Origin: a virus
Lineage: Duplodnaviria > Heunggongvirae > Uroviricota > Caudoviricetes
Virus record (IMG/VR): IMGVR_UViG_2740892229_000013
Length of the DNA stretch: 38,746 nt
Reading direction: 5' to 3' (one strand)
The notes beneath the pieces are model-generated. The model was given only the letters and a program-made list of their open reading frames with translations. It ran no database searches and was not told the origin of the DNA. The position numbers were made by a program, and so were the translations under genes. Positions 421-7,093 of the stretch are shown here, in pieces (the first letter of the stretch is position 1; every line of letters starts with the position of its first letter).

Positions 421-598
421 GCATTAACGCCTATAGAGAGGTTGAGACAGATAAAACACGAAGAAAACACAACATGTATAGCGAAGAAGCCAGGTATGTA
501 TAAGTGGAGAGGGAAGGAGGGGTGTCGCCTCCTTTTTCGTATTTATTCAACTCCTGATTTTATCCCCCGTAACACCCCTACGGTCAGCCTTCGGTCCA

Positions 599-746
599 TA
601 CAGGGAAAAGGCTGCATCCCGCTACAGAAACGGCTGGGTTGCCTTCGGGGAACGGCTGGAGGTTTTCAGGGAAACGGTCGAGTTGCCTGTGTGGATTTCG
701 GGAGAAGGCTCGATGCCGGTTCAGGAACGGTGGCGTACCGGTATAG
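599..746 (+). repeat. Array of about 6 direct repeats, core TCRGGGAAACGGCTG, spaced 20-32 bp (iteron-like)
   Basis: Copies begin near 599, 623, 643, 665, 697, 721; read directly from sequence. Confidence 0.6.
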
Positions 747-1092
747 CGAGAGGGAGAGTTGCGGCTACCCACCTGTAATGTGCGGGAAGAAGAGAGGCGC
801 TCACGTAGGCGGACTTGCTTACCGCTGGATTCCCTCTGAATGCCCAGCTACAGCGTAATTGTGCCAGACAGCCAACGGGTCACAATCGATTTCAGTAGGT
901 TTTCGGGGAGAGGATTATTCTGCCCACCAGCCACTTTCGGCCACTAAATCAGAATAATGTAAAAAGTGTACTCGGTACTGAACCTGAAAACTCACTGCCA
1001 AAACCACATTCACCGGAATAAAATCCTTTTTCGCCTGTGCGTTATTGCGATAATAACACCATCAAGAAAACATGTTGTTTAAGGATTGCTTT

Positions 1093-1422
1093 ATGTTTGC
1101 AAATATCGACATCAACCAAATCAAGAAATTAACTCAAAAAGAGTTTGATCAGTTTTATGAGTTAGAAGGTTGGTCTTCCACTCTGATCAATTCGCGGTGG
1201 GTGCTTGAGCTGATGACTCGTGATGACGCACCTGCTTTGATGATTTGCGACATGGGTGAAGATGCTGACTTTATGGATATGAGCGAATTTTGTGTGGACA
1301 CATACAACCGCAGCCAGAAGTACTACTTCACATGCGATAGCGAAAATGACGTGATTTCTAAGGTCTATCTTCACCTCGTCCAGCATTGGGACGTTCAGGA
1401 GTTTCTTGAGGTATTCGCGTAA
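1093..1422 (+). CDS. hypothetical early protein (about 110 aa)
   Basis: ORF track 1072..1422; AAGGA at 1081-1085 favours ATG 1093; alternative start 1072. Confidence 0.5.
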   Translation: MFANIDINQIKKLTQKEFDQFYELEGWSSTLINSRWVLELMTRDDAPALMICDMGEDADFMDMSEFCVDTYNRSQKYYFTCDSENDVISKVYLHLVQHWDVQEFLEVFA

Positions 1423-1551
1423 TCCCAACCAAAGCCAGCATTGCTGGCTTAATTTCTCTATAGCCGCTGGGAGGAACCTGCATATCGATCATGCACCTGA
1501 TCATTATGCTTTGTAGCCGTTTTCTTACTGGTATTATTTACGCCATTTAGA

Positions 1552-1564
1552 AAACAAGTTGTTT
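1552..1564. promoter_or_regulatory. 13-bp palindrome AAACAAGTTGTTT (candidate operator)
   Basis: Perfect 6+1+6 inverted repeat just upstream of RBS of gene 1576; identical copy at 12362-12374. Confidence 0.45.
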
Positions 1565-1575
1565 ACGGAGTTGTG

Positions 1576-1887
1576 ATGAAAAAATCATTGGTTCTTGGTC
1601 TGGACAAAGACCAGAAGAGAAAAGAGAAGCCTGCACTGGTTGCTCAATTAACTTTGCTAGACATCGTTGCCAATGGAACCTCTATTCGTCTGTTCCGTGA
1701 AACAGCGGTGTCTTTCGATAAAAACACCTTTACTCGTTATGTAATGAATGTTCGTCGCCAGCGTGGAAAAGGCTGGATGGCATTTCAAAGAATGTGGCCG
1801 GAACATCAGCTCGAACTGGCTTTGATGGAAGTTAACCGCGTGGCCCAGCAAGAAATTCAGAGAGCATCAGTGATGGCAATAGCCTGA
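1576..1887 (+). CDS. hypothetical early protein (103 aa)
   Basis: ORF track 1573..1887; GGAG 1567-1570 then ATG 1576; followed by terminator. Confidence 0.5.
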   Translation: MKKSLVLGLDKDQKRKEKPALVAQLTLLDIVANGTSIRLFRETAVSFDKNTFTRYVMNVRRQRGKGWMAFQRMWPEHQLELALMEVNRVAQQEIQRASVMAIA

Positions 1888-1921
1888 TAATGTGCAAGTG
1901 GTAATTAGTCGACAGTACGAC

Positions 1922-1949
1922 AGCCCCGCCATCCTTACGGGGCTTTTTT
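1922..1949 (+). terminator. rho-independent terminator
   Basis: GCCCCG (1923-1928) / CGGGGC (1938-1943) stem followed by TTTTTT. Confidence 0.7.
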
Positions 1950-1954
1950 GTATT

Positions 1955-1970
1955 GTAAGTACATACTTAC
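1955..1970. promoter_or_regulatory. palindrome GTAAGTACATACTTAC (AGTAAGTA-family site)
   Basis: Perfect inverted repeat GTAAGT/ACTTAC between terminator and gene 2014. Confidence 0.45.
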
Positions 1971-2013
1971 GATCATAGAATAGAAAAATAACCAAGACAC
2001 TACGGAGAGTGAA

Positions 2014-2409
2014 ATGACCGTTAAACGCGAAAAACTGACAGTTGATGTTTACTATGCCTCTGAAACCGCCGAAGGTAAGAATGTGGCAAAAATCACCGTT
2101 GTTACGTACAACACCGAAACTGGTGCCGAAGTCCAGGCCAGTACGATCGTGCGTAAAGGTGATGCCTCCGGCGGCGAGTACGCGACTCAATACCAGTCCA
2201 TTCTCGATGCAACTGACCCGCTGCTGCTGAAAATCGAGAACTACTTCCGCCAGGTTGATGAAGAGGTGTTTGAAACCATGATGAATATGGTTAACACCGT
2301 ATTCGCCTCCAGCCTGAACACCAGCACCACCTGGATTGGCCAGTACGGTCTGCGCATTACCTCTGGCATTCCTGCCGACACCTTAATCCCTGAAAGCGTA
2401 TTCGCTTAA
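2014..2409 (+). CDS. hypothetical early protein (131 aa)
   Basis: ORF with RBS ACGGAGAG 2002-2009; followed by terminator. Confidence 0.55.
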   Translation: MTVKREKLTVDVYYASETAEGKNVAKITVVTYNTETGAEVQASTIVRKGDASGGEYATQYQSILDATDPLLLKIENYFRQVDEEVFETMMNMVNTVFASSLNTSTTWIGQYGLRITSGIPADTLIPESVFA

Positions 2410-2418
2410 TCCTCTTTA

Positions 2419-2447
2419 AATGGCGCGCAAACCGCGCCATTTTATTA
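2419..2447 (+). terminator. rho-independent terminator
   Basis: AATGGCGCG (2419-2427) / CGCGCCATT (2433-2441) 9-bp stem then T-rich tail. Confidence 0.7.
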
Positions 2448-2455
2448 TGCCCGAT

Positions 2456-2466
2456 AACAATTTGTT
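2456..2466. promoter_or_regulatory. palindrome AACAATTTGTT (candidate operator)
   Basis: 5+1+5 inverted repeat upstream of gene 2527. Confidence 0.4.
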
Positions 2467-2526
2467 TTCTGCCTTATCTGATTTGTGAAAATGATTTCAC
2501 TGAAGCAACTTAATAAGGAAACCATC

Positions 2527-2901
2527 ATGGGACTTGATATCTATATCGAGACACAGCCTAAAAACGATCTGAATAACGAGGCATCCAGAAAGCAGGTTGC
2601 TTACTTCCGTAAGTTCAATGCGCTCGTTGGGTGGATGGAGCGCAACGTAGGTGAAGTCGAAAATTGTGAGCTTTTAGAATTAACGATGAATGACATTTGT
2701 CTTCTGAAAGCTCATTTGATGCACATAAACGAAAGCAATTGCGAAGAGTACTTGCCTACTCGGGAAGGTTTTTTCTTCGGCAGTCAGGAGTACGACGAAG
2801 GTTACTGGCATGACGTGGATAAGCTGAAAAAACTTGTGGAAGACCTGATCAGGAACCACGACTTTCACAATAACAGACTGACCTTCTGCGCCTGGTGGTA
2901 A
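2527..2901 (+). CDS. hypothetical early protein (about 124 aa)
   Basis: ORF track 2485..2901; AAGGA 2515-2519 favours ATG 2527. Confidence 0.5.
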   Translation: MGLDIYIETQPKNDLNNEASRKQVAYFRKFNALVGWMERNVGEVENCELLELTMNDICLLKAHLMHINESNCEEYLPTREGFFFGSQEYDEGYWHDVDKLKKLVEDLIRNHDFHNNRLTFCAWW

Positions 2902-2903
2902 AT

Positions 2904-3047
2904 ATGGGCGATTTCAAGAAACGCCTGAAGGAAAGAGCCGAGATGGTCAGAAAGCAAAACGCCTCTTCTGTCATCAGATACGCAAGGCAGTTTAGTCGCA
3001 ACAACAAATCAGTTGAGGAAAAGATCCTTAGCGTAATCGGTCGATAA
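2904..3047 (+). CDS. possible small basic protein (47 aa), not in ORF track
   Basis: ATG 2904 to TAA 3045-3047, K/R-rich; weak RBS; followed by hairpin 3051-3078. Confidence 0.25.
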   Translation: MGDFKKRLKERAEMVRKQNASSVIRYARQFSRNNKSVEEKILSVIGR

Positions 3048-3177
3048 TTATTAAGGCCATCAGCATTGGTGGCCTTAAATGACCATCCTGTTTCCCGCAG
3101 GCTAAAAACACCAACCTCTTACCTCCAGGCAACCGACAAACCCACCTGTTCCCGTCCGGCTACCGCAACTTTCCACT

Positions 3178-3204
3178 TTGACGCCTTATTCGTACAACGA
3201 TAAT
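3178..3204 (+). promoter_or_regulatory. candidate sigma70-like promoter (TTGACG, 15 nt spacer, GATAAT)
   Basis: -35-like 3178-3183 and -10-like 3199-3204 upstream of gene 3252; spacer shorter than optimal. Confidence 0.35.
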
Positions 3205-3219
3205 TAACACAAACAAGAA

Positions 3220-3230
3220 AACAATTTGTT
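3220..3230. promoter_or_regulatory. palindrome AACAATTTGTT (candidate operator)
   Basis: Same 11-mer as 2456-2466, upstream of gene 3252. Confidence 0.4.
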
Positions 3231-3251
3231 ATTTACGATAAGGAATTAATC

Positions 3252-3734
3252 ATGAATTTTATCGCTACTGTAAACGCACCCGCACATGGCAATATCGCTG
3301 TAACGTTCTCTGACATTGAAAAACGAGTACTTGGTGCATGGCGCGACAATGAGACGGTAGAACTGTCAGCACAAGAAAAATGCATTATTGCACGCGACAT
3401 CATTGGCAATCGTCGTTACTCGCGGGTATTTGAGAAAGCGTATGTGGTAAATTCTGGATTCGGAACGTTCGTCTTTCCGGTGCGCTCCGGGCGATTCTGC
3501 CAGTCCAAGCTGATTGAGTTCGCTACGCAGATTTCTGTCTGGATTAAAACTCAATCGTCGTTCAAATTTTCCGACGATGAAGCAGTATCGCAGGGGATGC
3601 GGATCGCCAACAATGCAATTAAATGCAAAAACATTACGTATACCGCTGGCGTTGATACATGGAAACTGTTTTGCGCTAACTTTATGCTGAATGTATACGC
3701 AAGCAACCGCATCCACATCCTTGATGGCGTGTAA
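3252..3734 (+). CDS. hypothetical early protein (160 aa)
   Basis: ORF with AAGGA RBS 3240-3244; terminator follows. Confidence 0.55.
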   Translation: MNFIATVNAPAHGNIAVTFSDIEKRVLGAWRDNETVELSAQEKCIIARDIIGNRRYSRVFEKAYVVNSGFGTFVFPVRSGRFCQSKLIEFATQISVWIKTQSSFKFSDDEAVSQGMRIANNAIKCKNITYTAGVDTWKLFCANFMLNVYASNRIHILDGV

Positions 3735-3736
3735 CT

Positions 3737-3768
3737 GAGAAGAGGGCCAGAAACGGCCCTTTCTCTAT
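3737..3768 (+). terminator. rho-independent terminator (imperfect stem)
   Basis: AGAGGGCC / GGCCCT stem with T-rich tail immediately after stop of gene 3252..3734. Confidence 0.55.
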
Positions 3769-3782
3769 AGCCACCAGCTGCC

Positions 3783-3946
3783 GCAGGGAAATTTTCAGAA
3801 ACGGCGAGGAACGTATTCGTGAGCCGACGGGGAACGGCCAGGATTTTTTCGGGAAACGGCTGCATTCGCCTTTGTGTAGAAAAAACATCGGGAAGCTGGT
3901 GGAATCCAACCAGCGGTTGTCGGACAGGTGAGCGGGGAAAATCATG
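3783..3946 (+). repeat. Second cluster of TTTTCRGGGAAACGGC-type direct repeats (iteron-like)
   Basis: Copies near 3783, 3795, 3826, 3848, 3887, 3930; same core as array at 599-746. Confidence 0.55.
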
Positions 3947-4272
3947 ATGACTTTCGTCGCCTGAGACATCCAGATTTCTTTCGTAGCGTAATCACATATG
4001 TGATTAAGTGGTGTGATTATGTGAAAAATCACGCGCACATAATACGCGAGCGGATACGGAACAAAACAAAATGCCGATCCGCGCCGACAATTAAACGCGG
4101 ATCACATAGCAAGAATAAAAGCCAATGATTAACCATACACCATAACGCAATATAACGCGATTTAAGCGCGTTAATGCGCTAAGTAATGGGTATGTACTGG
4201 TAAGGATATAGAAGCGCGTCTATGGCGTTATTTTGGCGCTTATTTTTATGTTGTTGGCTTGAGTCAAAGACA

Positions 4273-4297
4273 ATAAAAAAAGCGCCATCATTGGCGC
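4273..4297 (-). terminator. terminator for leftward transcription
   Basis: Palindrome GCGCCATCATTGGCGC (4282-4297); on minus strand hairpin is followed by TTTTTTT. Confidence 0.55.
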
Positions 4298-4327
4298 GTT
4301 ATGGTGGAAGTATTGGAAACGAAAAAA

Positions 4328-4344
4328 GCGCCCATAGTGGGCGC
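4328..4344. terminator. 17-bp palindrome GCGCCCATAGTGGGCGC, hairpin/terminator-like, copy 1
   Basis: Perfect 7-3-7 inverted repeat flanked by A-run and T-rich tract; identical copy at 4824-4840. Confidence 0.5.
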
Positions 4345-4350
4345 TCGATT

Positions 4351-4581
4351 TTATTTATGTAGACTGATTTCAAATCCCATTTCTACAAACGCTTTTAACA
4401 TTAAAAATATATCAGCGTCGTTCACGTCTGCTTTTTTTCGCTCCTGGTCGCTCAATAAGTCAATTTTGCGCGTCGTTTCATCTATAAGCTCGACTGCGCG
4501 CCCAGCGTAACCAGCGATCCCAGCGATGCGATTAACATAATATTCGTTATGGACGTTAACGCCAGCGATAAGAACAAACAT
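4351..4581 (-). CDS. hypothetical small protein (76 aa) in AT-rich island
   Basis: ORF with AAGGAGC RBS 6 nt upstream of ATG on minus strand. Confidence 0.45.
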   Translation of the reverse strand: MFVLIAGVNVHNEYYVNRIAGIAGYAGRAVELIDETTRKIDLLSDQERKKADVNDADIFLMLKAFVEMGFEISLHK

Positions 4582-4601
4582 GATTAAGCTCCTTAAAAAA
4601 A

Positions 4602-4805
4602 TTAAATAGAATTTTGAAGTTTTCCGATTAATGCGCTTAAACGTAAGTATTCACGTTTGCGCTTGCAATCTCGCTTGCTGTTAAGCAAATCAGAAAACGT
4701 AAAATTTAATTGGTCGCGTTGCGCGATTAAATCATCGATTAATTCCAGTTTATAAGCGCGATACTTTGCGCGATATTCCGCGCGGATCTTGTCATAGCTG
4801 ACCAT
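4602..4805 (-). CDS. hypothetical small protein (about 67 aa)
   Basis: ORF track 4602..4850; AAAGGAGC RBS favours internal ATG at 4805; upstream part of tracked ORF is the palindrome. Confidence 0.4.
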   Translation of the reverse strand: MVSYDKIRAEYRAKYRAYKLELIDDLIAQRDQLNFTFSDLLNSKRDCKRKREYLRLSALIGKLQNSI

Positions 4806-4823
4806 TTTCAAAGCTCCTTTAAA

Positions 4824-4840
4824 GCGCCCATAGTGGGCGC
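4824..4840. promoter_or_regulatory. 17-bp palindrome GCGCCCATAGTGGGCGC, copy 2
   Basis: Identical to 4328-4344; lies between co-directional minus-strand genes. Confidence 0.5.
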
Positions 4841-4853
4841 TTGATTCCATTAA

Positions 4854-5504
4854 TTACGCTTTGAAAGCATCAGCTAAATAATTGTAGAAATCATTTTTAA
4901 TGAAGCGATATTGCTGAGTACCAGCTTTCGCACTCCCAGCTCCTTTGACTTTTTCAACAAGTCCAAGACGTTCGCAAAGATTGATCAACTGGTTGGCTTG
5001 AGTATAGCCAGCGTCCAATTTAATTTCACACGCTTTTTTAGCTTCATTCATTAAATCGAAAACAGCGCCATTGGTGAACGTGTCGATCTCGTCGTTAATC
5101 ATATCGATTAAAGCGAATACACGAGATCCTGACATATCAGCGATGGAATAAACGCATTTACCAGATTTAATTGATTTAACCAGATAAACCAGTTTTTCCA
5201 GAGAATAACTATTAGTCATTGCATCACGGAAAAATACTTCTGGCGCTTGTTTGCTTGCTTTAATCGCATAGTAGAAAACAGAGCATAATTTTTCGTCTTC
5301 TACTGCGTTTACGACGTTGTTGATGAAGTAAGCAAGTTTAGTGGTCGCAGCTTGCATATTTGCTTTGTCTGCTTTAGTGTGCGTACCATTTTTATAATGT
5401 TCGTTATATGTTTGAGTTGCCAGATCTGCTTTATCGCGCAGCTCGTCGGATACAATAGATGCAGCTTCAATGATGGACTTTTTAGAAATGATAATGTTAG
5501 CCAT
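4854..5504 (-). CDS. hypothetical protein (216 aa), AT-rich island
   Basis: ORF with AAGGAAA RBS; no recognisable catalytic motif by eye. Confidence 0.5.
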   Translation of the reverse strand: MANIIISKKSIIEAASIVSDELRDKADLATQTYNEHYKNGTHTKADKANMQAATTKLAYFINNVVNAVEDEKLCSVFYYAIKASKQAPEVFFRDAMTNSYSLEKLVYLVKSIKSGKCVYSIADMSGSRVFALIDMINDEIDTFTNGAVFDLMNEAKKACEIKLDAGYTQANQLINLCERLGLVEKVKGAGSAKAGTQQYRFIKNDFYNYLADAFKA

Positions 5505-5744
5505 GATAATTTTTCCTTATGTAAATTTAAAATTTATTGTCGTTAGCGTCTTCGCTTTCGACGAGTTCAATTATCGATACGCGAAAAAAGATTGCAAGTG
5601 TTTTTTTTAAATTTTTTGCAGGGATGAAAGTCCTAGAAATAAAAGCGAGATCGTCGAAGGTGTTCCCTAAATAAATAATCGATTCCGGCTTTCGACCTTA
5701 TATATATTTAGGTTATTTGATTTGTAGATATAAAGAAGTGATGT

Positions 5745-5775
5745 GAAAAATAATAACCGGACTTAGCCGGTTATT
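5745..5775 (-). terminator. terminator of minus-strand helicase operon
   Basis: AATAACCGG (5752-5760) / CCGGTTATT (5767-5775) stem; T-run follows on minus strand. Confidence 0.6.
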
Positions 5776-5787
5776 AACCTTATAGAT

Positions 5788-6096
5788 TTATTGAACAGAC
5801 TCTACAGCCTTACGATTGGTGTCAAATAGCGCATCAACGAACTGTGCCGATGACTCGCTAGATTCGCAATCCAACATTGCCCGTTCTTCATTTGCCACTT
5901 TCTTACACAGTTCCACATTCTCACCTATCGCTTTTCCTGCTTTTACGGCTGCCGAAAATTGATACATGCAAACTGATACATTCTGAGACGTTGAGCACAC
6001 GTCATTCATCAGCGACTGAATGACAGGCTTATAGTCCATTGCATTTGCCGCAACTGAGCAAAGTAAAAATAATGGTGGTAACAATATCGATTTCAT
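5788..6096 (-). CDS. small secreted/periplasmic protein (102 aa) with N-terminal signal peptide
   Basis: N-terminus MKSILLPPLFLLCSVAANA looks like a Sec signal peptide; 4 Cys in mature part; start 3 nt after upstream stop. Confidence 0.55.
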   Translation of the reverse strand: MKSILLPPLFLLCSVAANAMDYKPVIQSLMNDVCSTSQNVSVCMYQFSAAVKAGKAIGENVELCKKVANEERAMLDCESSESSAQFVDALFDTNRKAVESVQ

Positions 6097-6099
6097 AAC

Positions 6100-6624
6100 T
6101 CAAAAAGGCAAAATTCGTTCAACCCAATCGAACAAAACAACTATTTTTCTACCGTTCTCGACACGTAGTGTAACCTGACAAGCATCTGCGCCTGCTGACA
6201 CCCCCTCAATTTCACGGCCATCCGCCATGTACACCCTTATAGATTTGTTTGCTTTGTAGGCTTGGTTGCAAATTGCAAAAAAATCGCGGCGTGATGGCCG
6301 ATTATCGACATAATCAGGGTGAACTGTTAGTCGACCTTTGAAATCGTGAGCGATACTGTCAACCACACCTGATTCAATTGTACTAATGCGTTCAAGTGGG
6401 AGCCTTATACGATTTTCTTTGTCAAAAGGGGCTGGGCAAAGGTCAACTTTGTTACGAGATGGCATGAGGCCATAAACGTACATGCAAAACGCCTGGCCAT
6501 CTTCGAGAGTGACCCTTACAGGAATTTGTTCTCTGCGCCAGAACATCAGTAGTTTTTCAACGTTAGTGTAATCTCGCGGCCAGAGTTCAGCTTGGATACC
6601 GTAGGTAATATCTTTGGTTGTCAT
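6100..6624 (-). CDS. hypothetical protein (about 174 aa)
   Basis: ORF track 6100..6702; ATG 6624 begins 4 nt after lipoprotein stop (coupled), so upstream extension rejected. Confidence 0.5.
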   Translation of the reverse strand: MTTKDITYGIQAELWPRDYTNVEKLLMFWRREQIPVRVTLEDGQAFCMYVYGLMPSRNKVDLCPAPFDKENRIRLPLERISTIESGVVDSIAHDFKGRLTVHPDYVDNRPSRRDFFAICNQAYKANKSIRVYMADGREIEGVSAGADACQVTLRVENGRKIVVLFDWVERILPF

Positions 6625-6628
6625 GTCA

Positions 6629-7093
6629 TCACAGAGTTGTTGGCAGAATGTCGATGTCACCAGAATTGCTGGTGAACACCCTGAACGCTTTTGTGTCTCC
6701 ATTCTTCAGAGTCGTTTCTCGCTCTTGACGAGCGGGGTTTAGAGCACATAAACCTGCACCTTCAAGAGATGCACCCACAATTAATTCTCCGGCATTTAAA
6801 TGGAAAGTCGCTTTTTCGCCTGTAGCCAGTTTTGCGACAGTTTCGCCATTGATGAAAATGGAAGCATCACATCCAGCTCCTACAAAACCTGTGTCTCTCA
6901 TTACCACCAACGTAGCTGGCGCTGCGCTTTGATACTTGAACACTTTGGCCTGCGGTGCTGGTTTGGCGTCATGGATTGATATTGGACGTGATTGGCACGC
7001 GGTAAGCATCAACACTGGTAACGTTAGTAGAGGGAGAAGCGAGTATTTCATGTTAGTTTTAGAACAGAAAGTGAACAGTATGGGAGACTTCAT
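6629..7093 (-). CDS. putative lipoprotein (lipobox LTAC)
   Basis: Hydrophobic N-terminus LLPLLTLPVLMLTAC-Q with lipobox; AGGGAGA RBS before ATG 7093; alternative start 7051. Confidence 0.6.
   Translation of the reverse strand: MKSPILFTFCSKTNMKYSLLPLLTLPVLMLTACQSRPISIHDAKPAPQAKVFKYQSAAPATLVVMRDTGFVGAGCDASIFINGETVAKLATGEKATFHLNAGELIVGASLEGAGLCALNPARQERETTLKNGDTKAFRVFTSNSGDIDILPTTL

Follow-up and report, generated by a model that had tools for sequence, protein, structure and literature searches.

A conserved noncoding interval (positions 3735-4350) at the convergent gene junction of an SSU5/pHCM2/pMT1-family phage-plasmid contains an array of GGRAACGG repeats, with one rightward terminator on one side and two leftward terminators on the other. 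Array and terminators are very probably functional, the array as a set of protein-binding DNA sites that share one helical face. The reading that we favor, at a probability of roughly 0.35, is that this array and its paralogue upstream form a cis-acting or control site (origin or replication control) of a second, phage-mode replication; a transcriptional control array is nearly as likely. The analysis defines a short, strongly conserved and experimentally tractable cis element composed of two paralogous phased arrays, for which a second origin and a regulatory hub are the alternatives, and separates the part under selection from ordinary terminators and a drifting spacer. Phage-plasmids of the SSU5/pHCM2/pMT1 type are common in clinical Enterobacteriaceae and include the backbones of Y. 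pestis pMT1 and S. Typhi pHCM2, and the searchable literature offers no description of their phage-mode replication or of the control of their lysogeny switch.

A Conserved Noncoding Junction between Convergent Transcription Units

The window, which here means the whole 38,746-nucleotide stretch of viral DNA analyzed (IMG/VR record IMGVR_UViG_2740892229_000013), matches the E. coli plasmid NZ_CP027358.1 at 100% and phage PhiR41_1 at 97%. At its interval 3735-4350, which is noncoding and conserved, an early-gene cassette that runs rightward meets a leftward-running regulatory/helicase operon. The 784 PLSDB plasmids that carry this interval come from Escherichia, Klebsiella, Enterobacter, Salmonella, Citrobacter and Yersinia pestis; its length in them stays within about 590-650 bp, and PGAP almost never annotates a gene there. 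Conservation was assessed in 16 representative sequences (alignment), 11 genomes (spacing), nine relatives (ORF) and two divergent relatives.

The frame of ORF 3928..4128 is kept in none of the nine relatives; its boundaries differ in every one of them, and the indels are not multiples of 3. These data bear out the first-pass annotation of this DNA, which described the region between the convergent units (3770-4350) as gene free. The comparison with related phages that it proposed, of repeats against ORF, finds the repeats conserved and no coding frame maintained across 3928..4128, so the conserved frame that it named as counting against its reading is not there. All of the sequence elements that it listed are present where it placed them. 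A tRNA/tmRNA scan gave no match, a sigma-70 promoter scan of 2800-5000 returned no site, and manual inspection found no convincing promoter within the interval. The searchable literature on SSU5/pHCM2/pMT1 origins, iterons and lysogeny and on PhiR41_1 contains nothing on this interval.

Intrinsic Terminators Account for Most of the Palindromes

The terminator-like features of the interval are as follows.

3738..3766, plus strand: terminator t1, GGGCC-AGAAAC-GGCCC then TTTCTCT, which ends the rightward 160-aa early gene (3252-3734)
4208..4252, plus strand: putative second plus-strand terminator, GCGC...GCGCTTATTTTT, listed by a consensus scan
4272..4306, minus strand: leftward terminator 2 (hairpin 4282-4297), GCGCCA-loop-TGGCGC then a minus-strand T-run
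4318..4350, minus strand: leftward terminator 1, potentially bidirectional (hairpin 4326-4346), AGCGCCCACTATGGGCGCT then TTTTTT

Most of the palindromes in the interval are ordinary intrinsic terminators. The t1 hairpin, in a block with a mean pairwise identity of 0.84, folds at -15.2 kcal/mol (z -3.67), and its stem carries a compensatory change among relatives (GGGCC/GGCCC versus GGGGC/GCCCC). Leftward terminator 1, located directly after the stop codon of a 76-aa gene (4351-4581), folds at -15.5 kcal/mol (z -4.09) and is invariant in stem and loop in 16/16 sequences, with a block identity of 0.94. The stem of leftward terminator 2 (-10.7 kcal/mol, z -3.67) is likewise invariant, while its loop occurs in reverse-complement versions among relatives (ATCATT/AATGAT, AACAAT/ATTGTT). 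The GC-rich hairpins, T-runs on the proper strands, favorable energies and compensatory stem change are those of intrinsic terminators between convergent operons, and the data show that the convergent units are insulated by one terminator for rightward and two for leftward transcription. This agrees with the earlier statements that the plus-strand genes end at 3734 with a terminator (hairpin plus T-tract, 3738-3766) and the minus-strand genes at 4351 with tandem hairpins (4326-4346 and 4282-4297).

Unlike ordinary intrinsic terminators, however, the 4326-4346 hairpin is family-invariant in both stem and loop and is duplicated at 4822-4842, where it lacks a T-run. Its invariance and duplication hint at a possible sequence-specific role besides termination. 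The block 4208..4252 is not supported as a stable plus-strand terminator hairpin, given a folding energy of only -8.4 kcal/mol (z -0.24). It is the left arm of an AT-rich inverted repeat (4234-4259/4262-4287), and GGCGCTTATTTTT within it is nearly invariant.

Two Paralogous Repeat Arrays Phased to the DNA Helix

The repeats form two arrays on the plus strand, with inverted motif copies between them.

598..745, plus strand: array 1, four exact 22-bp tandem units at 598, 620, 642 and 664 and two further sites at about 700 and at 723-730
3085..3150, minus strand: inverted motif copies GCGGGAAACAGG (core 3088-3096) and CGGACGGGAACAGG (around 3137-3150), upstream of the promoter of the 160-aa gene
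3783..3866, plus strand: array 2 core, five same-strand GGRAAC(G/C)G-type sites (U1 to U5)
3786-3794, plus strand: U1, GGGAAATTT
3796-3804, plus strand: U2, CAGAAACGG, a conserved unit without GGA
3807-3814, plus strand: U3, AGGAACGT
3829-3837, plus strand: U4, GGGGAACGG
3851-3859, plus strand: U5, GGGAAACGG
3867..3942, plus strand: degenerate tail of array 2, containing GCCTTTGTGTAG, U6 and U7; identity 0.71
3890-3899, plus strand: U6, GGGAAGCTGG, which reads CGGGAGAAGCC in relatives
3934-3942, plus strand: U7, GGGGAAAAT

A second repeat cluster had been claimed at 3783-3946, and its clustering is not random. RGRAACGG has 11 matches on the plus strand of the window where about 3 are expected, and these include two groups of four matches within 130 bp, compared with a maximum of two in 300 Markov simulations. 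Equivalent core positions of U1 to U5 lie 10, 10, 23 and 22 bp apart, and the sites therefore fall on one face of the DNA helix. The 12-mer TGAGCCGACGGG lies inside the array at 3820-3831. Local alignment of array 1 with array 2 scores 54, compared with 24.5 +/- 3.3 for shuffles, and the degenerate tail is paralogous to the array 1 stretch GCCTGTGTGG...CGGGAGAAGG. As judged from such alignment, array 2 together with its upstream terminator is shown to be a paralogue of the 22-bp tandem array 3.2 kb upstream, which has its own terminator just in front (510-545, -13.4 kcal/mol, z -2.4). Both arrays are located 20-50 bp behind these terminators, in the transcribed orientation.

In the related 108-kb genome of PhiR41_1 the motif clusters at these two loci only. 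That genome has no iteron-like arrays besides these two and the RepA iterons; a genome-wide 8-mer scan finds noncoding iteron-like clusters solely at the RepA iterons and at this array. The same scan picked up two other minor clusters, which are inside annotated coding genes. When 2.9 million viral contigs were scanned for two motif copies 22 bp apart, essentially this family alone was recovered. An unrelated phage (L113) has an 11-bp-phased array beside an AAA_25 helicase gene; because that helicase has no homologue in the present element, the match was set aside as a possible convergence. A variant array, GGGGAAAGG, is found at locus L089.

The spacing of the sites is conserved. In 11 genomes array 2 shows a site spacing of 33/22 or 23+10/22 bp, and array 1 contains four to seven copies spaced 21-22 bp, with the 22-bp spacing kept in most relatives; the exact spacing of array 1 could be the result of mere tandem duplication. 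The array 2 core is retained in 16/16 representatives and in the two divergent relatives. Its identity is 0.79, compared with 0.59 at codon position 3 of the neighboring gene, and the arrays evolve as slowly as codon positions 1-2 of the adjacent gene (0.83-0.87). The two-cluster layout persists even in relatives in which the neighboring protein is only 53-62% identical. By these sequence comparisons, both arrays are shown to be under purifying selection. We consider it very improbable that nothing beyond the terminators is functional here, with the repeats a relic of duplication or ORF 3928..4128 a real gene. A central spacer close to neutrality and the absence of array 1 from pMT1-like elements (Y. 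pestis pMT1 keeps array 2 but has no array 1 within 4 kb) would fit such a reading. However, the excess of array identity over that at synonymous-like positions argues against it, as does a spacing and copy layout kept across Escherichia, Klebsiella, Enterobacter, Citrobacter, Salmonella and Yersinia elements and in the more distant relatives, and the real-gene variant is contradicted by the lack of conservation of the ORF.

A Drifting Spacer that Keeps Its Length and Phasing

Three features lie to the right of array 2, none assigned to a strand.

3906..4130: central spacer, fast-evolving, with a mean pairwise identity of 0.62-0.65 and many indels that are not multiples of 3
4141-4180: four tandem ~10-bp units, ATAACGCAAT, ATAACGCGAT, TTAAGCGCGT and TAATGCGCTA, of the form WTAAsGCGnT
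4183-4197: conserved box GTAATGGGTATGTAC, kept in 16/16 sequences

The alignment shows that roughly 300 bp to the right of array 2, including the AT-rich GCGC part, drift almost neutrally, with length and a 10-bp AT/GCG phasing maintained. The lineage of the window has replaced sequence within the central spacer, which harbors a lineage-specific 18-bp palindrome (TAATCACATATGTGATTA, 3989-4006) and an inverted repeat (GATCCGCG...CGCGGATC, 4076-4103); the short conserved islands left in it are CCATCCAGAT and ACGCGAGCG. The phased stretch ranks at the 99.8th percentile of the window for 10-bp S/W periodicity, a signal that is not unique there, and the divergent relatives have an analogous 10-bp GCG/AT phasing. 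The in-phase AT/GC alternation at 4141..4197 suggests bendable or curved DNA.

The description of 4130-4260 as AT rich and packed with GCGC-cored inverted repeats stands in part. This stretch is 39.7% GC (window mean 47.8%), which places it at the ninth percentile of 131-bp windows, so that it is only mildly AT rich, and it is close to neutral. Nowhere else in the window are GCGC/CGCG tetramers so dense (18 per 350 bp versus 2.8 +/- 2.7), but they are better described as the four tandem ~10-bp units than as packed inverted repeats.

The Arrays as a Putative Site of Phage-Mode Replication

An iteron origin is recognized by three or more direct repeats that recur about every two helical turns, and both arrays contain such repeats (22 bp in array 1; 10, 10, 23 and 22 bp in array 2). 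We infer that the repeats are putative iteron-type sites and that the phage-plasmid encodes the sequence-specific DNA-binding protein that would occupy them. Like P1 oriR/incA, F ori2, the R6K gamma ori and lambda ori, the interval shows direct repeats, four to seven per array, that recur about every 22 bp, with a 9-11 bp core and variable spacers; there is also a second array at a distance and mildly AT-rich phased DNA nearby. In contrast to these origins, it has no adjacent Rep or O-type gene and no DnaA or IHF sites, and any AT-rich unwinding element would lie away from the repeats rather than abut them. Indeed, no gene of an initiator or Rep family adjoins the interval, which contains no DnaA box within one mismatch and no IHF consensus, and its two GATC sites are no excess over the approximately 2.6 expected. 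DnaA, IHF and GATC sites are not obligatory for phage lytic origins. The nearest AT-rich DNA (4130-4260), weakly conserved, is about 230 bp from the array and contains the four tandem ~10-bp units. The cumulative GC skew of the whole element is monotonic and uninformative, since it follows gene orientation.

The plasmid (prophage) origin is located elsewhere. In PhiR41_1 it lies at 103.9-105.7 kb and comprises repA, at least 13 ACCGCTGACAGCATA iterons that flank this gene and a cluster of GGATC, followed downstream by an incA-like array with the same consensus, about 35 kb from the interval; thus, the element's genuine copy of a P1-like oriR/repA/incA region is a different locus with a different iteron. 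The RepA iteron is absent from the window, its sole match (38063, three mismatches) being at chance level. That the interval itself is the plasmid origin or a RepA iteron/incA locus was therefore rejected as next to impossible, given the distance to repA/oriR, the missing iteron and the unrelated motifs; nothing speaks for it but the array's general likeness to iterons. The first-pass view that the layout is origin-like consequently holds only in part. A noncoding, conserved interval with an iteron-like array on an 11/22-bp phase and a paralogous array speaks for it; a plasmid origin elsewhere, the missing DnaA, IHF and GATC signal, the lack of an adjacent initiator and the distance of the AT-rich part speak against it. 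From this mixed evidence, with a phased array on one side and no initiator or host-factor sites on the other, origin function is possible.

The closest precedents are systems with two clusters. In satellite phage P4, ori and crr are two iteron clusters 4.5 kb apart that are both bound by the alpha protein, and distant R6K origins are activated by looping. By analogy, the present element would resemble P4 ori/crr and R6K in having two clusters of the same motif a few kilobases apart with genes between them, although, unlike in P4, no alpha-like primase-helicase adjoins the arrays. In the phage-mode replication model the arrays would act as a replication site or control distinct from the RepA/oriR plasmid origin, and looping or handcuffing, known from P4 ori-crr, R6K and P1 oriR-incA, could couple the two. 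Wrapping or melting might take place in the phased, bendable, mildly AT-rich DNA to the right of array 2, and transcription may be kept off the array site by the terminators.

The arrays could instead have no role in replication, the phased repeats being operators (for repression, silencing or a roadblock) of a regulator encoded by the phage-plasmid that controls the early cassette (1072-3734) or reinforces termination. This is a possible, tentative reading. Small early genes, each with a conserved promoter of its own (CGATAAT -10), make up the cassette between the arrays, and the 160-aa gene has a conserved promoter (TTGACG 3178, GATAAT 3199) preceded by the inverted motif copies, of which the first, with its surrounding CA-rich sequence, is kept in most relatives. 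The position of both arrays close behind terminators fits this reading too, and potential regulators, a winged-helix protein and an FljA homologue, are encoded nearby. Immunity repressors with phased direct repeats and distal flanking sites include P2 C and 186 CI, the latter with FL and FR. The arrays resemble these operators in having repeats about two helical turns apart, distal clusters flanking an early region and a regulator gene nearby. However, they do not lie over the early promoters, where the operator-like site is a different one, a palindrome (AAACAAnTTGTTT), and they are 3.2 kb rather than about 300 bp apart, a long separation for operator cooperation. Moreover, array 2 has neither a downstream plus-strand gene nor a recognizable promoter. 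Terminator-proximal arrays in the transcribed orientation would also fit a transcript-level element or a roadblock.

Other cis-acting DNA sites are quite improbable. Phased direct repeats are typical of centromeres and of terminase small-subunit sites, and a strong gyrase-wrapping site would go well with the 10-bp AT/GC phasing and a position between convergent units. The centromere-binding protein TubR is, in addition, among the fold matches of the winged-helix protein. However, PhiR41_1 has a 222-aa ParA, pMT1 uses a ParAB of the P1 type that has a parS of its own (PMC7602700), and tens of kilobases separate the par loci from the array. Because partition systems differ among family members while the array stays conserved, the centromere was rejected. 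A packaging (pac) site is disfavored by terminase genes about 10 kb away, and a gyrase site by the periodicity signal, which recurs elsewhere in the window.

Candidate Partner Proteins and Recognition as DNA or RNA

Two products of the leftward genes are candidates for binding the array.

4854..5504, minus strand: 216-aa protein whose C terminus forms a winged helix; its gene is the first in the leftward operon ending at the interval
6100..6702, minus strand: FljA homologue ('repressor of phase-1 flagellin' family; Pfam PF03614, E = 2.5e-84; phrog_1444)

The 216-aa protein is one candidate DNA-binding partner. Its fold is that of a generic winged helix only, with no informative viral structural match, and it resembles MarR-type dimers. 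Such dimers usually bind palindromes. This resemblance, together with the palindromic site at the early promoters, suggests that the 216-aa protein may not bind the array. The 160-aa neighbor was rejected as the array binder; its AF2 model is confident, but it has no PDB neighbor and no DNA-binding fold. The alternative candidate is the FljA homologue, which also has a weak Hfq-like match. All relatives encode it, including those of nonflagellate hosts, and its gene keeps its synteny with the interval throughout. Flagella are absent from Klebsiella and Y. pestis, and FljA reportedly binds the fliC leader.

The FljA homologue makes it conceivable that the weak-tailed terminators are read through into the arrays and that an FljA-like protein binds the resulting RNA, by analogy with FljA on the fliC mRNA leader, the arrays serving as a multisite decoy or as a control of 3' extensions; we regard this as unlikely. 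Besides the invariable synteny, resemblances to fliC leaders favor it. The 12-mer TGAGCCGACGGG followed by a GAAC-containing stretch is common to the E. coli fliC 5'UTR (GAACGG here, GGAAACCC in fliC), the Enterobacter-type fliC leader GAAGCCGAAGGGTGGAAACCC resembles the Enterobacter/Klebsiella-type array unit GGAACCGAAGGGAAACGGCC, and the central unit can form (G)CCG[RRGGGRAA]CGG(C), comparable to the Salmonella leader hairpin ACGG[UGAGAAA]CCGU. Both arrays are, moreover, sense oriented behind terminators with interrupted T-tracts. Against it, sites spaced by multiples of 11 bp make no particular sense in an RNA, the hairpin can form in only a single unit of each array, the scan for promoters found none, and Y. 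pestis RNA-seq tables place pMT1 sRNAs at other loci only; the 12-mer match itself is post hoc, with a chance probability of roughly 0.005. Neither structure nor covariation was detected. Rfam returned no family at the gathering threshold and only chance-level matches at E <= 5, RNAalifold found no covariation beyond the terminators (terms of -2.48 on the plus strand and +1.04 on the minus strand), and single-sequence folds of array RNA are no better than those of shuffles (z +1.39 and -0.97). The arrays are like CsrB/RsmZ-type protein-sponge RNAs in having many GGA-containing repeats within about 120 nt, but differ from them in having no Rfam match, promoter or hairpin-loop presentation, a unit without GGA (CAGAAACGG) and a fold similar to that of shuffled sequence.

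A related proposal, which we regard as doubtful, is that the GGRAACGG arrays are the native nucleic-acid targets of the phage-plasmids' FljA-family regulator and that the FljA-fliC recognition of Salmonella is a domesticated offshoot. The likeness to the FljA/fliC mRNA leader system of Salmonella phase variation lies in the clear FljA-family protein of the element and in the central array unit, with its shared 12-mer and the GGAAAC-type purine-rich loop motif of enterobacterial fliC leaders. In contrast to the fliC leader, the array has many copies with the phasing of a DNA site and lies outside any 5'UTR. If the proposal is correct, the arrays would act as multisite decoys or roadblocks that set the free level of the regulator or insulate the early cassette.

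Identity of the Element and Conservation of the Interval

The region 3000–5000 is ~97% identical to Escherichia phages CMS-2020a, PhiR41_1, and Cyrano, with more distant matches to Klebsiella and Salmonella SSU5-type phages, and the interval between the rightward 160-aa early gene and the leftward operon (3735–4350) matches E. coli plasmid NZ_CP027358.1 at 100% identity. At the sequence level, these phage and plasmid matches identify the element as an SSU5/pHCM2/pMT1-family phage-plasmid (window position = PhiR41_1 position − 31389). The interval is carried by 784 PLSDB plasmids from Klebsiella, Escherichia, Enterobacter, Yersinia pestis, Salmonella, Citrobacter, and Cronobacter, and its length stays at ~590–650 bp. 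That it is gene-free, as previously proposed, is borne out: ORF 3928..4128 lacks conservation among relatives, and in eight plasmids PGAP left the homologous interval without a gene call.

Features of the interval, the upstream array, and the early-gene leaders
598–745: array 1, four exact 22-bp tandem units and two further copies
1054–1079, 1538–1563, 2453–2466, 3205–3230: operator-like AAACAAnTTGTTT sites
3738–3766 (+): t1, terminator hairpin after the 160-aa gene (3252–3734); −15.2 kcal/mol, z −3.7
3786, 3796, 3807, 3829, 3851: array 2 cores, equivalent-core spacing 10, 10, 23, 22 bp
3890, 3934: array 2 degenerate copies
4282–4297 (−): second leftward terminator, in tandem, behind the operon end at 4351; z −3.7
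4326–4346 (−): leftward terminator behind the operon end at 4351; z −4.1

The terminators noted at both transcription-unit ends are present, and a compensatory change in the t1 stem is seen in relatives. A putative second rightward terminator (4208–4252) is unsupported (z −0.24). In an alignment of 16 representative sequences, <95% identical to one another, mean pairwise identity was 0.84 in t1, 0.79 in the array, and 0.62–0.65 across the central 300 bp; the two leftward terminators had 0.79 and 0.94. For comparison, the adjacent gene gave 0.83, 0.87, and 0.59 at its first, second, and third codon positions. Measured against these codon-position values, the block identities indicate that the array and terminators are under purifying selection and that change in the central part, AT-rich/palindrome segment included, is close to neutral, with the exception of short islands and a 10–11-bp AT/GC phasing. 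This phasing lies at the 99.8th percentile of the window and is at least equally strong in two relatives. Hence, in the comparison with related phages suggested by the first-pass annotation, the repeats are kept and the ORF is not. The features described there are confirmed as a whole, the AT-rich stretch with GCGC-cored palindromes among them: GCGC/CGCG tetramers reach the window's highest density in the interval, arranged as four tandem ~10-bp units (4141–4180), and the AT-richness is modest (39.7% GC, 9th percentile).

The high GCGC/CGCG density also reaches into the small leftward genes (4441–4850), for example as tandem GCGCGATACTnn units at ~4757–4785. Hairpin AAAGCGCCCATAGTGGGCGCT, the leftward terminator at 4326–4346, recurs without a T-run behind it at 4822–4842, between the 216-aa and 67-aa genes; its stem and loop are invariant in 16/16 relatives, more constancy than is usual in an ordinary terminator. 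The stem of terminator 4282–4297 and its homologues (alignment A2 of relatives, columns 613–630) is likewise invariant, while the loop occurs in reverse-complement versions (ATCATT/AATGAT, AACAAT/ATTGTT), as if flipped repeatedly.

Two Paralogous, Helically Phased Repeat Arrays

The GGGAAACGG repeat cluster reported earlier is real: RGRAACGG has 11 plus-strand matches in the window versus ~3 expected, with two groups of four within 130 bp, and 300 simulations gave no group larger than two. Arrays 1 and 2 are paralogous, including their preceding terminators. Across 11 genomes, intervals of 21–22 bp in array 1 and 33/22 or 23+10/22 bp in array 2 are all multiples of one helical turn. In the 108-kb PhiR41_1 genome, motif clusters occur at these two loci only, and a genome-wide scan for iteron-like 8-mer clusters returned the RepA iterons and array 2 only, besides two minor clusters inside annotated coding genes. 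Divergent relatives (neighboring protein 53–62% identical) retain both clusters, 3.7–3.9 kb apart in the same orientation; in pMT1-like elements, array 1 was not found within 4 kb. Two inverted motif copies also lie upstream of the 160-aa gene's promoter.

The 11-bp-multiple spacing favors recognition on one face of duplex DNA. On the RNA side, Rfam gave no match, covariation was absent on either strand, and array RNA folded no better than shuffled sequence; in a Y. pestis RNA-seq catalogue, pMT1 sRNAs map to other loci only (PMC3770706).

In most relatives, a copy of the 13-mer CCACCAGCTGCCG (window 3771–3783) is present on either side of the 160-aa gene (alignments A4 and A2; locus positions ~3925 and ~4520), the upstream copy being lost in the window lineage, and array 1 is followed, at ~935, by the similar GCCCACCAGCC. 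An unrelated GC-rich viral contig (IMGVR_UViG_3300046714_000194, locus L113:1500–1700) has at least seven GGGAAACGG-like copies in 11-bp phase, directly downstream of a gene for an AAA_25 (RepA-like helicase) protein with a winged-helix-like C terminus; the SSU5-type element encodes no homologue of this protein.

Possible Roles in Replication or Transcriptional Control

The description that best fits the interval is a set of terminators together with an iteron-like array that is conserved, phased, and putatively protein binding and has a paralogue upstream. The origin reading of the first-pass annotation is supported in part, in form though not in function: scanning the interval revealed no DnaA box, IHF site, or GATC excess, no Rep-family gene is adjacent, and the plasmid origin lies elsewhere, with repA and its iterons at PhiR41_1 103.9–105.7 kb. 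There, five iterons plus a GGATC cluster precede repA and nine follow it (consensus ACCGCTGACAGCATA); none occurs in the window. GC skew was uninformative on the origin. The iteron-like array geometry and the presence of a second array resemble P1 oriR/incA, R6K, and P4 ori-crr. The plasmid and lytic origins of P1 are separate, and by analogy a large element encoding its own Pol III alpha subunit, primase, and helicases, as this one does, might possess a second, phage-mode origin. An origin or replication-control role is thus plausible, and a phage-mode origin or such control is our leading guess (probability roughly 0.35). Close behind it, as a tentative alternative, the array may serve in transcriptional control or as a roadblock. 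Searches of the accessible literature yielded no account of this cis element.

Two products encoded nearby are candidate binding partners of the array. The 216-aa winged-helix product of the leftward operon (4854..5504, −) could equally bind elsewhere, at the operator-like palindrome AAACAAnTTGTTT in the leaders of four early genes. The alternative candidate is a homologue of FljA, the "repressor of phase-1 flagellin" (PF03614, E = 2.5e-84; 6100–6702, −), which is syntenic in every relative, elements of nonflagellate hosts included; its C terminus has a weak Hfq-like match. FljA binds the fliC mRNA leader and thereby represses fliC. The E. coli fliC leader (locus L094) contains TGAGCCGACGGGTGGAAACCC, compared with TGAGCCGACGGGGAACGG at window 3820–3837; the 12-mer TGAGCCGACGGG (3820–3831) is common to both and is followed by a GAAC-containing stretch, GAACGG in the window and GGAAACCC in fliC. 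Enterobacter-type fliC leaders (GAAGCCGAAGGGTGGAAACCC) similarly resemble the Enterobacter/Klebsiella-lineage array unit (GGAACCGAAGGGAAACGGCC), and the Salmonella leader hairpin ACGG[UGAGAAA]CCGU resembles (G)CCG[UAGGGAAA]CGG(C) in Salmonella elements. The leader match was found post hoc, and the array as an FljA target is a speculative and improbable reading of these sequence likenesses. Arrays of other lineages show a parallel similarity to the leader type of their own hosts.

Neighboring Early and Leftward Genes

Four rightward early genes carry palindrome AAACAAnTTGTTT in their 5′ leaders, between a conserved promoter (−10 element CGATAAT) and the ribosome-binding site, which it closely precedes; by sequence, it appears to be an operator that these genes share. 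A CGATAAT −10 element is also found ahead of the leftward 216-aa gene (~5570). Long CA-rich, G-poor noncoding plus-strand tracts occupy 1–470, upstream of array 1, and 3085–3175, upstream of the 160-aa gene promoter; the small ORFs annotated in them in PhiR41_1 are unconvincing.

At 4602–4850, a mechanical 82-aa ORF probably starts at 4805, behind an AAGGAG ribosome-binding site, giving 67 aa, in agreement with a PHROG match (residues 16–82) and the PhiR41_1 annotation. Its database name, "MIT family metal ion transporter CorA," is apparently a misannotation, the product being a small coiled-coil protein. Conservation is very high (85% column identity) across 5505–5800, ahead of the 216-aa gene; this stretch contains a pair of TATAAGGGTRAT...CCG direct repeats, the terminator of the FljA gene, and the leader hairpin ATCG-AA-AGCG-AACA-CGCT-AA-CGAT. 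The lowest-GC segment of the window (27.5%) lies at ~5486.
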